Below, piece by piece: positions 10,011 through 61,214 of a stretch of 64,000 bases of DNA (the stretch's first letter is position 1; every line of letters begins with the position of its first letter). The DNA is from Candidatus Heimdallarchaeota archaeon (GTDB lineage Archaea > Asgardarchaeota > Heimdallarchaeia > Heimdallarchaeales > Heimdallarchaeaceae), in NCBI GenBank assembly GCA_016840095.1, contig JAEOSZ010000040.1:42194-106193 (forward strand). The letters run 5' to 3'. The position numbers were made by a program, and so were the translations under genes. Below the pieces are notes generated by a model. That model was not told the DNA's origin. It saw nothing but the letters and a program-made list of their open reading frames with translations, and made no database searches.

Positions 10011-11735
10011 ATGACCAAAGGATATCTCAATTTCGTTTTGCATGGACATTTACCATGGGTATTGGAAGCAGGAACATGGCCTCATGGAGAAGTCTGGTTA
10101 CATGAAGCTGCAGCTGAAACATACACTCCTACTCTATCTATGTTAACTGACCTTTCTGAAAAAGAAGGTTTTACTAACATGTTAACTGTTGGTTTGACAC
10201 CAGTTTTAAGTGAACAACTCGCTCATCCAAGTTTTAAAGCAGGTTTTGTTGAGTATCTTGATAACAGAATAGATGCTAGTTATAAAGATAAAGATCACTT
10301 TAACTGGGTTGGAGAAACAGACACTGCACATCTTGCAGAAAGATGGGCTAATTTTTATTCTTCGATTAAACAGCAATTTAATGAGAGATTTAATCAAGAT
10401 CTTTTAGAAGGTTATAAAAATCTCCAAGATAAAGGAGCAATTGAGATTATTACTTGCGGACTAACTCATGGATATCTTCCTTTACTCGGAAAAGAAGAAA
10501 CTGTAAGTGCTCAAATAAAAGGTGGTCAAAGTATCTATAAGCACAGATTTGGAGGAAATGATTCTCAAGGAATTTGGTTACCTGAATTAGCTTATAGACC
10601 AGGGTATAAATGGAAAAATCCAGTTACTGGAGAGGAAATAGATAGAAAAGGTGTAGATTATTATCTACAGAAAAACAATATTGAATATTTCATTGTTGAT
10701 ACACCTTTGTTGAAAGGTGGGAAAGGTATAGGAGCTTATCTAGATAGGTTTGATGCTTTGAAACTACTATGGAATCAATTTGAAAAAGAAAAACCAGAGA
10801 TAGAAGGTTCAGATCTCACTCCTTACAGACCTTACAAAGTTAAAGATTCAAAAGATTATGATAAAGAAGTAACCTTTTTCACAAGAGATAGCAAAACAGG
10901 AATTTTAGTCTGGTCTGGTGACATTGGTTTTCCAGGTGATGAATACTATCTTGAGTTTCATAAGAAGCATTTTCCAAGTGGAAACAGGTATTGGAGATTA
11001 ACAGGAAAAGATGTAGATTTAGGAGAAAAAGAACTCTATAATGATCTAAAAACAATTGAAAGACTAGATGAAAACTCTGAATACTTCTTCAAAATTGTAA
11101 AAGAATCTTTGCTAGAAAATTATTCAAATAACAAGAAGCCAGGTATAGTACTAAGTCCATATGATTTCGAATTACTAGGACACTGGTGGTTTGAAGGTAT
11201 TGGTTTTCTAGAAAGAGTTATCAAGCATGTAAAGAATGATGATGAAATTGAAACTACTACTAGCAAGAAATATCTTGAAATGTATCCTCCAGACAAGAAA
11301 ACATATGTTTCTTTACCAGAAGGATCTTGGGGTGAAGGTAATTTCCATTGGATATGGTTAAATGACAATACAACTTGGTGCTGGAAGTATATCTATGAAA
11401 CTGAAAAATTATATTTAGAAGCAATTGAAGAATTTAAAGCTACAAATTACAAGGATTTTGGAACAGCTAAGAGGTTGATCAATCAACTTGGTAGAGAACT
11501 CTTCTTACTGTCTTCTTCTGACTGGGAATTTCTAATATCCACTTGGGCAGCTAGAGATTATGCTGAGCATAGAGTAACAACTCACTATGAAAATTTCAAG
11601 AAGTTACTTGTTTTGTTCAAAAAATGCAATATTGAATCAATTTCAGATTCTGAATATAAATTGTTAGAAAAGATAGAAAAGGAAGATAGTATCGCTTGGG
11701 AACAAGATGTTTACAAGTGGTTCGAACTACCTTAA
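10011..11735 (+). CDS. GH57 1,4-alpha-glucan branching enzyme (DUF1957 C-terminal domain)
   Basis: VLHGHLPWV, ETYTP, THGYLP, GIWLPELAY (nucleophile), PYDFELLGHWWFEG (acid/base), SSDWEF. Confidence 0.92.
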   Translation: MTKGYLNFVLHGHLPWVLEAGTWPHGEVWLHEAAAETYTPTLSMLTDLSEKEGFTNMLTVGLTPVLSEQLAHPSFKAGFVEYLDNRIDASYKDKDHFNWVGETDTAHLAERWANFYSSIKQQFNERFNQDLLEGYKNLQDKGAIEIITCGLTHGYLPLLGKEETVSAQIKGGQSIYKHRFGGNDSQGIWLPELAYRPGYKWKNPVTGEEIDRKGVDYYLQKNNIEYFIVDTPLLKGGKGIGAYLDRFDALKLLWNQFEKEKPEIEGSDLTPYRPYKVKDSKDYDKEVTFFTRDSKTGILVWSGDIGFPGDEYYLEFHKKHFPSGNRYWRLTGKDVDLGEKELYNDLKTIERLDENSEYFFKIVKESLLENYSNNKKPGIVLSPYDFELLGHWWFEGIGFLERVIKHVKNDDEIETTTSKKYLEMYPPDKKTYVSLPEGSWGEGNFHWIWLNDNTTWCWKYIYETEKLYLEAIEEFKATNYKDFGTAKRLINQLGRELFLLSSSDWEFLISTWAARDYAEHRVTTHYENFKKLLVLFKKCNIESISDSEYKLLEKIEKEDSIAWEQDVYKWFELP

Positions 11736-11780
11736 TACTCTTTCTTTCTCATTCTTAGTGTAAACCTTGTTAGTTTGTTT
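11727..11780 (-). pseudogene. Probable relic copy of a glycogen synthase 3' end
   Basis: Translates KQTNKVYTKNEKERVLR* vs GlgA tail 12802-12855 KQWQKVYLKAKIKKIKM*: 6/17 identical, no gaps, same stop position. Confidence 0.45.
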
Positions 11781-11963
11781 GAAATTCAAGAAAATCCGAC
11801 TAATTGATCAATAGATTACATATTTTTTAATGCTTTCTAGTTAGAAAGAGAATACATATTAATTAAGAATAGACAGATTAAAGATGAATTTAAGCTACTA
11901 AAAAGACCAATAAAATTGCGAATACCAATACCGTTATTATGATGTTTCTCTAATCAGTTTATT

Positions 11964-12590
11964 ATGTCTCGCAAGAAGAAAATCTTCGTCATTGTATTCA
12001 GTATATTCTTTGCAATTGCTGCAAGTTTTGGAGGTTTTGTTCTATACAAATTATGGCCTGCTACTTTGGAAAGAGGTCCTCCCAGTATGGATTTTCCAAT
12101 TCAAGATCCAGATGTCATACACATTCTTGGAGGTTATGGTTATGTTCCGTGGGGTATAGATACTCACAATGGCATTGATTATGGGTGTAATGCTTCTGTT
12201 TACATTGTTGCTTGGTGTGACTTACGTGTAACTGGATTGAAAACTTGGTTTAATGATGGTGGAGGGCACTGGCAGACAAATGTTGGTCTTTCATATAATT
12301 GGAAATACACTTTCGATTGTGTCTTTGAATCATGGGCACTAAACGAGACTTATGGAAATCTCCAACGAGCTGATATTTATGTAAAAGTTGGTCAAAAAAT
12401 TTCAAGAGGAGACATCATTGGTAAACTACTTTATCATGGTGAAGGTACTCATATTCATTTTGGAATGAAAGAAAGTGGAAATGATGTTTGCCCGTACTTA
12501 TTCCTCTCTCCATCTGCTAAGCTTCAATTCGATTCCTTGTGGATTAATTATGGTTCATGTCCAATTGTATGTAATACCACACTTAGCTAA
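11964..12590 (+). CDS. Membrane-anchored M23-family metallopeptidase
   Basis: N-terminal basic patch + TM; HNGID (HxxxD), VKVGQKISRGDIIG, HIHF (HxH). Confidence 0.8.
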   Translation: MSRKKKIFVIVFSIFFAIAASFGGFVLYKLWPATLERGPPSMDFPIQDPDVIHILGGYGYVPWGIDTHNGIDYGCNASVYIVAWCDLRVTGLKTWFNDGGGHWQTNVGLSYNWKYTFDCVFESWALNETYGNLQRADIYVKVGQKISRGDIIGKLLYHGEGTHIHFGMKESGNDVCPYLFLSPSAKLQFDSLWINYGSCPIVCNTTLS

Positions 12591-59415: not shown

Positions 59416-59448
59416 AAACTGAAAATTGAAGAAGAACTACAGATGTAA
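59416..59448 (+). pseudogene. Relic 3' end of the DUF6320-like gene
   Basis: KLKIEEELQM* vs gene tail KTKIKAKLQM* (58671-58703), in matching position before the duplicated intergenic motif. Confidence 0.65.
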
Positions 59449-59474
59449 AAAAAGCAGAACTAGAAAGAACTAGT

Positions 59475-61214
59475 TCATTTTGATCTTTTCTTACGAATTA
59501 CTATAATTACAGTCAAGAAAGTAATTGAACCAAATATTAGACTTGAAATCGTACCAAACTCATTTATAACTGGCAAATACACAATACTCCAACAATTTGA
59601 AGGAGTGCTGTTTCCAATAGAGTTACTGGCAACAACGACGAAGTAAAATGTACCAGATGTAGGAAGTGTATCAATATAGAAAGATGTAACAGTATTACCA
59701 ATTGGAGTAAGACCTTCAACCGATAAAATATTGGAAGTTGAACGATAGATATAATATAAAGAAGCACCTAGCACATTATTCCAGTCCAAGGAAACTGTTT
59801 CTTCATGAGTAGGATTAGGTAATATTGGAAGCAATTCAGGAGCATATAGAGGACTGTTTAAAACCTTGTAGAAAACATCCAGATCTGTACCACAATTGGT
59901 GTAATTTGTTCGATCCTCCCAAGCTATATGAATATTCCCAGCATTATCAGTTGCTATTGCAGGACCTTCAGAGTGATCTGTACTTTCTACAGATACGATT
60001 TCTGTACCAGTCCAAAGAGATGTACAAGCTTCCCAGCGTTTATAGAAAATATCTACATCATCTCCACAACCAATAATATTAGTTTCATCCCACCAAATTA
60101 TATGTACATTCCCTGCAAGATCAGTAGTTAGACAAGCTTCAACAGAACTACCTGAACTTTCCGTGGAAACTACTTCAGTTAAGGTCCATGAGGAAGTTTC
60201 AACTATCCTACGCTTATAGAAAATATCATCTTGAGATCCACACCCAGCATAATCAGTCATATCATACCAAGCTATATGCGGAGTTCCATGTTTGTCAACA
60301 TCAAGAGAAGGCCAGCTTGAACTGCTTGTGCTTTCTGTGGAAACCACTTCAGTTGTGGACCACGAAGTGATAGAAGTATTCCATTGCTTATAGAAAATAT
60401 CTCTATCTATTCCACAGTTAGTATAATTTGTTCTATCCTCCCATGCTATATGTACATTCCCAGAAGTATCAATTGCAATTGATGGATTAACAGAATTCTC
60501 TGTACTTTCTGTAGACACGACTTCTGTTATGGACCATGAAGAAGAGGTACTGTTCCAATGTTTGTAGAATATGTCAGAATCGTCTCCACAATTGGTGTAA
60601 TTTGTAAAATCGTCCCATACAATATGGATGTTACCTGCTGAATCAGTATCAAGTGAAGTAACAGCAGAATCTTCTGTACTTTCTGTAGACACGACTTCTG
60701 TTATAGACCATGAAGAAGAGGTACTGTTCCAAAACTTATAGTGAATATCATAATCTGTTCCACAATTAGTGTAATTCGTGTTATCCTCCCATGCTATGTG
60801 AATATTTCCAGTTATGTCAACCACTAGAGAAGGAAACCACGTACTTCCCGTACTTTCAGTTGAAACGACTTCTGTCTCTGTCCATGTTGAGATAGAAGCA
60901 TCCCACTTTCTATAGAAAATATCATAGTCTGTTCCACAATTAGTGTAATTATGATTATCACCCCATGCTATATGTACATCACCCACAGAGTCGATTGCAA
61001 GAGAAGGGAGAAATGAAGAACTAGTACCTTCTGTGGATACTACTTCAGTTTGAGTCCACTTCCAAGGAAGATTTTCGCAAGAATCTATGATGGTTCTATT
61101 ATTTTCATTGATACTAGCTTCGATGTTAAATGTATTAAGTGGATAAGTAGTTATAATGAAAATAATCAACAGAATGCTTATACTCATTTTAAATCTATTT
61201 TTTCTATTTTTCAT
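59475..61214 (-). CDS. Secreted 7-repeat beta-propeller + FN3-like membrane-anchored protein (copy 1)
   Basis: Seven ~58-aa repeats W-x2-TEVVSTES...GNxHIxW-x-D-x-TNYTNCG-x-D-x-DIFYK; LDWN...YYIYRS FN3-like domain; INEF + TM + basic tail. Confidence 0.85.
   Translation of the reverse strand: MKNRKNRFKMSISILLIIFIITTYPLNTFNIEASINENNRTIIDSCENLPWKWTQTEVVSTEGTSSSFLPSLAIDSVGDVHIAWGDNHNYTNCGTDYDIFYRKWDASISTWTETEVVSTESTGSTWFPSLVVDITGNIHIAWEDNTNYTNCGTDYDIHYKFWNSTSSSWSITEVVSTESTEDSAVTSLDTDSAGNIHIVWDDFTNYTNCGDDSDIFYKHWNSTSSSWSITEVVSTESTENSVNPSIAIDTSGNVHIAWEDRTNYTNCGIDRDIFYKQWNTSITSWSTTEVVSTESTSSSSWPSLDVDKHGTPHIAWYDMTDYAGCGSQDDIFYKRRIVETSSWTLTEVVSTESSGSSVEACLTTDLAGNVHIIWWDETNIIGCGDDVDIFYKRWEACTSLWTGTEIVSVESTDHSEGPAIATDNAGNIHIAWEDRTNYTNCGTDLDVFYKVLNSPLYAPELLPILPNPTHEETVSLDWNNVLGASLYYIYRSTSNILSVEGLTPIGNTVTSFYIDTLPTSGTFYFVVVASNSIGNSTPSNCWSIVYLPVINEFGTISSLIFGSITFLTVIIVIRKKRSK

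Follow-up and report, generated by a model that had tools for sequence, protein, structure and literature searches.

Within a 64,000-nt stretch of DNA from a Candidatus Heimdallarchaeota archaeon (NCBI GenBank assembly GCA_016840095.1, contig JAEOSZ010000040.1, positions 42,194 to 106,193; hereafter the window), four accessory genes (cargo) lie behind unrelated resident genes at three loci, accompanied by imperfect direct repeats of the last codons of the resident gene. One copy completes the intact resident gene, while the other is an orphaned tail, here called a relic. By sequence comparison the relics are mostly displaced alleles, since a relic is as a rule no further from the allele of another species than from its own working copy. 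The pattern looks like a scar of frequent cross-species recombination, and not like the work of a dedicated gene-capture machine. An earlier note on this DNA had described the repeats and the four cargo open reading frames (ORFs), and both are found here, with the relics at a GH57 branching enzyme gene and an alcohol dehydrogenase (ADH) gene ranking highest and the third locus weaker.

The window lies on contig C11 of a 3.44-Mb metagenome-assembled genome of the Heimdallarchaeia (completeness 89%, bin contamination 7.8%), designated G000, which was compared with 24 congeners numbered in the style G001 to G024 (Cn denotes contigs of G000, and Ln loci). Its closest relative is Candidatus Heimdallarchaeota archaeon AB_125 (GH57 92% identical in amino acids). 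Gene packing is dense, with a median gap of 15 nt between convergent pairs, and the genus is mosaic throughout, with patchy tracts of 0–5% divergence between species that are 10–27% apart. An exact-protein contig look-up found no same-species assembly.

At the GH57/glgA locus, searches with orthologous tails as queries placed the relic first among 4,460 oriented intergenic segments (score 86 vs 40.5 for the next). All six codon differences between the working tail and the relic before the last codons are synonymous, and the relic differs from other species' alleles at 5/53 sites vs 8/53 from its own copy. Cargo 1 is 98% identical in amino acids to its AB_125 counterpart and ~30% identical to those of other congeners. 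Empty sites in relatives, which the earlier note had named as a check, do occur: 9 of 19 relatives are empty at this site and 10 are filled with varied cargo, and glgA overlaps or abuts GH57 in genomes with the empty site. The same structure is present in AB_125 and in independent JGI, ENA, NCBI and Logan assemblies, counting at least eight independent assemblies of AB_125-type cells, and thus is not an assembly artefact. A glgA-like stretch after the GH57 stop is weak (score 28) and not significant alone.

The ADH/hydantoinase locus carries two stacked insertions, with the order behind ADH being beta-helix gene, relic 1, hydrolase gene, relic 2 and convergent hydantoinase gene. With ortholog tails as queries, relics 1 and 2 rank first and second of 4,460 intergenic strands (62 and 51 vs 36.5), and relic 1 differs from the working tail by six synonymous and five nonsynonymous changes. 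ADH abuts the hydantoinase gene in three relatives, leaving an empty site, and elsewhere has other neighbours. The cargo-3 family stands behind ADH without a detected relic in G012, G013 and G014.

The third locus is real, but weaker than the other two. Its 90-nt direct repeat (score 86) stands, although not simply as the repeated gene tail that the earlier note had proposed: the unit comprises both convergent gene ends with their spacer, part of it is a palindrome present after every propeller paralog, and the half derived from the resident zinc-ribbon gene (the "DUF half") is not significant alone (rank 6/4,460). The "DUF6320" label of that gene was not reproduced by Pfam or NCBIfam, and no empty site was found among relatives. 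Separately, the window from 59437 to 64000 holds beta-propeller surface genes in tandem, with 174-nt internal repeats and the same short palindrome after each; the length of this array varies in the genus.

Table 1. Features of the three loci (window coordinates, position 1 being the first letter of the window).
Feature	Position	Strand	Remark
GH57 branching enzyme, resident, intact	10011..11735	+	Pfam PF03065+PF09210; in 21/24 congeners
Working GH57 tail, incoming allele, left repeat	11677..11735	+	
Block exchanged recently with AB_125 lineage	11658..12750	+	~3% divergent vs ~17% in flanks
Cargo 1, membrane-anchored M23-peptidase-like protein	11964..12590	+	PF01551
GH57 tail relic, displaced allele	12738..12793	+	56 nt; 8 nt before glgA stop
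glgA, convergent neighbour	12802..14268	-	
Hydantoinase-like gene	44981..46363	+	Convergent neighbour of ADH in empty-site genomes
ADH tail relic 2, older	46371..46430	-	Decayed, one indel
Cargo 2, alpha/beta hydrolase	46473..47351	-	No close homolog in 24 congeners
ADH tail relic 1, younger	47446..47503	-	Joined directly to cargo-3 stop at short shared word
Cargo 3, beta-helix (NosD-like) surface protein	47504..49156	-	
Zn-dependent ADH, resident	49216..50262	-	Last 72 nt (49216-49287) are the working tail
Zinc-ribbon membrane gene, conserved, resident	57954..58703	+	Called DUF6320-like in the earlier note
Left repeat: working DUF tail, propeller 3′ palindrome, dead propeller end	58662..58751	.	
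Cargo 4, small membrane protein, 143 aa	58920..59351	+	In five other contexts in genus
Right repeat: dead DUF tail, palindrome, working propeller end	59406..59494	.	
Beta-propeller surface protein	59475..61214	-	First in tandem paralog array

Whether the two copies at a locus are alleles or duplicates cannot be read from synonymous differences alone, which the earlier note had taken as a sign of two alleles. The bias at GH57 is real, but it is no proof, because a duplicate with one coding and one neutral copy also has about half of its changes at third positions. The pooled synonymous bias was therefore set aside as insufficient and allele comparisons were used instead. Among 13 relics whose own working copy is available, 10 are as close or closer to another species' allele than to that copy. 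In G018 the working GH57 gene diverges from its nearest relative at 16/102 sites between positions -150 and -48 vs 61/1500 upstream (p=4e-6), a rise from ~4% to 16% just before the relic start at -48. In G012 the working H+-PPase gene is of foreign type for at least 813 nt, and FumB of AB_125 shows the same polarity as these two cases, differing from its empty-site ortholog at 44/147 sites in the working tail, 34/147 in the relic and 51/450 upstream. Donor tracts extend from 100 nt to >800 nt upstream of the relic start. A 585-nt relic in G013 is 8.7% different from its own copy from the first base on, with 3/194 second-position changes, and reads as a second allele over its whole length. Taken together, the allele comparisons support the earlier view of the orphan tails as displaced alleles, against a decayed target-site duplication.

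Several further features of the PPase and FumB genes were seen. At L361:3201-4175 (G012), a host-type displaced PPase tail supplies the C-terminus of the last cargo gene (HTH/bPH_2) by in-frame fusion, and the same junction is decayed in G001. In the window (27762-30053) and in relatives, two H+-PPase allele types have been swapped between species; the 3′ end is a stacking site in G001, G004 and G012 and is empty here. Low-complexity repeats lie beside PPase at L034:16846-18935 (G014), with beta-helix gene fragments on the opposite strand. At L344:3458-6178 (AB_125), a 906-aa protein with no Pfam match is inserted between the subunits of fumarate hydratase, next to a 147-nt relic of the FumB tail.

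A genome-wide excess of tail relics over controls, which the earlier note had asked for, was found. Same-strand downstream copies scoring at least 46 occur in 8 of 12,915 tail/downstream pairs vs 1 of 40,115 in three tail controls (Fisher p=9e-5), although two of the eight look like chance; most matches from controls with gene heads and gene middles were artefacts of paralogs or start calls. This amounts to ~7 relic events in 3.44 Mb, with 4 of ~8 relics inside the window, and to 4 events in ~1.1 Mb of AB_125. Relics other than GH57 were found in about ten species. Other genomes carry independent relics at GH57 (in G018, with nonsense changes), ADH (G004), carbamate kinase (CK; two stacked in G007), H+-PPase (G001, G004, G012), OTC (G016), FumB (AB_125) and the C163 gene (G013, G024), bearing out the suggestion that many unrelated genes are used. 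Tails for which no parent gene was found nearby occur in G020, G004 and G024.

Relic length ranges from 27 to ~590 nt, the long examples being that of G013 and one of ~400 nt in G012, and left edges vary even at one gene (GH57 -59/-48; ADH -57 to -92; CK -49/-96; PPase -27 to ~-400). One cargo is seen as a length series of 1383, 490 and ~75 nt, so 5′ truncation with retention of the 3′ end is usual in these genomes, and in G004 a multi-kb mobA/XDH duplicate has lost ~2.5 kb internally. At ADH relic 1, C82 and G012 PPase the cargo reading frame continues into the relic; later deletion would give the same joint. For three combinations of resident gene and cargo family (ADH-NosD, ADH-ABC, C163 gene), other species have the combination without any detected relic, which is the donor layout required by homology-anchored integration. 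Counted by hand, 14 of 24 relics have a convergent gene facing them vs a 37% baseline, at sites that are not a random sample, which weakly suggests that relics are kept as the neighbour's 3′ flank.

Some matches did not fit this series. Matches to propeller tails in G008 and G023 were discounted, being taken for tandem paralogs in decay. At G000 C158:10524-14184 (L203), relics are interleaved in the order A-B-C-a'-D-b' (flavodoxin-like, phosphotransferase, flavodoxin-like, KaiC-like), an order that a single insertion does not explain; reading these matches as truncated paralogs was rejected, the flanking proteins not being close paralogs.

The clearest sign of transfer between species comes from the GH57 block. 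G000 and AB_125 differ by ~17% in the flanks and by ~3% from 11658 to ~12750, with change points at 11645-11672 on the left and 12628-12777 on the right, the latter uncertain by 150 nt. At fourfold degenerate sites the cargo differs at 9/86 (0.105) and the neighbours at 74/168, 84/168 and 28/61 (0.44-0.50). Between the two genomes the GH57 relics show 8/56 differences, chiefly at third positions, vs 3.5-7.5% in the non-coding DNA of the cassette. We conclude from these divergences that a block of GH57 tail and cargo passed between species recently, with edges at or near the repeats. It is the best evidence for a tail-bounded cassette; of the idea that a cassette is the mobile unit, this one case stands, and the dedicated system does not. 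A caveat is that small AB_125-like contigs contaminate the bin, at an identity (96-97%) equal to that of the GH57 cassette: C20, C66, C89 and C123 match AB_125 at this level over their whole length and are probably mis-binned from a co-occurring species. A second tract, 94% identical between G001 and G012, ends at the PPase relic and appears to have moved as part of a larger block.

A dedicated system of minimal tail-plus-gene cassettes, as proposed in the earlier note, is not supported, because relic lengths and left edges vary, there is no shared motif, donor tracts are long, and only 2-3 of 49 gene-sized indels between G000 and AB_125 carry a relic. Across 15 junctions, no motif was shared and no 7-mer exceeded chance. 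As the earlier note had stated, no integrase, transposase or reverse transcriptase (RT) was found among the window ORFs scanned, or among their AB_125 orthologs. In the 89%-complete genome, searches found no RT, DprA, ComEC or Rad52-family gene; NucS is present, and the only tyrosine recombinase found is partial, at a contig end. A fixed att site was rejected given the variable edges and absent motif, as was a retro-element origin given that no RT was found. Two stand-alone 245-aa serine recombinases with an intact catalytic motif are encoded at G000 C163:109626-110354 (L249) and C31:9192-9893 (L250). They occur in 22/24 congeners, the first at 82-97% identity, and were not found in 16 genomes of other families; they are possibly domesticated, e.g., in place of XerA, and nothing links them to relic sites.

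Of the two routes offered in the earlier note, homology-anchored integration fits best. We hypothesize, with a probability of roughly 0.6, that a relative's gene end and cargo are integrated by homology-anchored joining, either through homology-facilitated illegitimate recombination (HFIR) or a single crossover, and are then subject to 5′ trimming, stacking and spread by homologous recombination. The donor would be a relative with a different gene directly behind the same conserved gene, in a genus whose species exchange DNA often. Incoming DNA, whose entry route we infer, would pair with the host inside the conserved gene (the anchor), presumably through host RadA-type enzymes. Its far end would join at the host's own gene tail via a short or accidental match, or a single crossover would be followed by deletion. 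The 3′ end of the incoming allele would then complete the gene, with the cargo next and the old host end shifted downstream. Deletions would shorten the redundant copy from the 5′ end and tend to spare its final 30-150 nt, probably because these also form the neighbour's 3′ flank, where they may act as a terminator, in a genome with such short convergent gaps. New inserts would stack beside the resident gene, and tail and relic could then serve as short homology arms by which the block moves on between species. Observed among these elements are the allele swap, the variable edges, the trimming series, the stacking and the spread across species, whereas the enzymes, the precise joining step and the terminator role are, like the entry route, inferred. 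At G018 GH57 and G012 PPase an upstream donor anchor is seen with host sequence replaced up to the joint, as expected of HFIR; single crossover plus deletion gives the same picture, and the two cannot be told apart here. HFIR would join the other end at a microhomology of 3-10 nt; the cargo-relic joints noted above could equally stem from a later deletion.

Several observations weigh against this hypothesis. The C163 relic differs from its own copy by three second-position and no third-position changes, as in a true duplicate. A linear double crossover could have used the 1.7 kb and 1.5 kb of 83%-identical flanking DNA, yet the edges of the GH57/M23 tract fall at or near the repeats, as suits a circle better. 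The missing DprA, ComEC and Rad52-family genes leave the uptake route without a candidate, and HFIR, a rare event in bacteria (PMC5361080, PMC6382021), is not known from Asgard archaea.

Bounded edges of this kind raise the possibility, which we consider doubtful, that blocks spread mainly as tail-plus-cargo circles, excised by recombination of tail with relic and inserted again through a single crossover at the corresponding gene of a relative, with the host's own recombination sufficing for both. The GH57/M23 tract, in which each species has its own relic allele, and the end of the 94% tract at the PPase relic are consistent with such circles, and a virus-like cycle has been proposed for repeat-flanked units (PMC2853133). 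However, the donor sequence upstream of the relic start in G018 and G012 calls for additional trimming or a different route, a donor that lacks a relic could not release a circle, and there is one clean case only, with an uncertain right edge. That such circles are moreover aided by the two serine recombinases acting with relaxed specificity, in an integrase-free cassette economy, seems improbable. We give still less credence to a relaxed-specificity recombinase acting in trans to capture non-autonomous cassettes at many gene ends. The two near-core serine recombinases are candidates by virtue of their distribution in the genus, and an archaeal tyrosine integrase sets a precedent for low-specificity recombination on 104-bp homologies (PMC5495485), but the sites share no motif or fixed edge, few indels are affected, and no recombinase is linked to a site.

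A true long target-site duplication, or a local tandem duplication with 5′ deletion, would make both copies host-derived, with the working one drifted synonymously. Both convergent ends are doubled at the third locus, in G018, in G007 and at AB_125 L369 (~120 nt overlap), the C163 relic fits, and the pooled third-position share is near one half. As a general explanation this is nonetheless quite improbable: it is the working tails, not the relics, that jump in divergence from close relatives, the long G013 relic differs from its first base with few second-position changes, and for G007 CK and G012 PPase the relics group with empty alleles of sister strains and not with their own working tails. 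Chimeric assembly of co-occurring strains or species is highly improbable. The AB_125-like contigs and the 7.8% contamination speak for it, but it could touch only the transfer argument at GH57, where the structure recurs in independent AB_125-type assemblies; relics elsewhere span about ten species, and the ADH and DUF repeats are 70-80% alike, without a common long k-mer.

The earlier note knew of no described system of this kind, and our literature search found no paper on gene-tail relics in Heimdallarchaeia, although published counterparts exist. HFIR or displacement arrays are described in Vibrio type VI secretion immunity arrays and in rhs orphan 3′ ends (PMC5361080, PMC3240628, PMC6382021). 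In both settings the anchor lies in a conserved upstream gene, old sequence is shifted downstream, inserts stack, no integrase is involved, and built arrays later spread by ordinary homologous recombination. Here, in contrast, housekeeping genes serve as anchors (GH57, ADH, CK, PPase, OTC, FumB), the inserted genes are surface and metabolic ones, the host belongs to the Asgard archaea, and the sequence left behind consists of the anchor gene's own terminal codons. Long target duplication (Nobusato 2000; Furuta, Abe, Kobayashi 2010, PMC2853133) likewise shows direct repeats >30 bp of variable length, often spanning the stop codon with the gene left intact, no mobility gene, and empty sites in relatives; the repeats >30 bp, inserts <20 kb and lack of a mobility gene are also found here. 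It is defined, however, for restriction-modification cargo and duplication of one target, whereas here no such cargo was seen (M23-like, hydrolase, beta-helix and membrane proteins) and the copies are mostly different alleles, with C163 compatible with a single origin.

The e14 prophage in icd, with its icdC relic, also supplies a replacement 3′ end with silent differences and leaves a displaced C-terminal fragment at the far end, but e14 measures 15 kb, has a fixed att site and can be induced to excise (PMC13626634); the inserts here have no integrase, no fixed edge or att core, and many targets. On this comparison, we would class the present loci neither with long target duplication nor with the icd/icdC type, and would liken their working to HFIR displacement arrays. 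IntpTN3 of Thermococcus recombines ~100-bp homologies at unrelated genes in an archaeon (PMC5495485), but this was shown for inversions by a plasmid tyrosine integrase, and here only the partial gene noted above was found. The Heimdallarchaeum aloposons and HeimV1/2 belong to the same broad lineage, with high gene flow, but integrate at tRNAs or carry integrases, and gene-tail relics are not among the features described in the accessible part of that source (PMC8813620). Integrons need IntI and a common attC hairpin, whereas the spacers here are target-specific gene tails with no integrase beside the arrays.

The loci offer a base-level view of how close relatives of eukaryotes add accessory and surface genes without mobile elements, with conserved gene ends as landing pads and DNA passing between species 15-27% apart. 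Relics record in what order genes were gained and from which donor, and by fusing to cargo they can supply new C-termini. For annotation they are a warning that tiny ORFs made of another gene's tail are scars. Since the mechanism has bacterial counterparts, it is a moderate surprise, which proof of circles or of a dedicated enzyme would heighten.

Two other features of the window were observed. At 50369-54589 lies a Vps10/sortilin-like surface protein of 1,406 aa with a C-terminal membrane anchor, not seen in the relatives' fetched ADH regions. At 21522-23496, two paralogs of ~320 aa, ~71% alike in nucleotides and without a Pfam match, stand in tandem.

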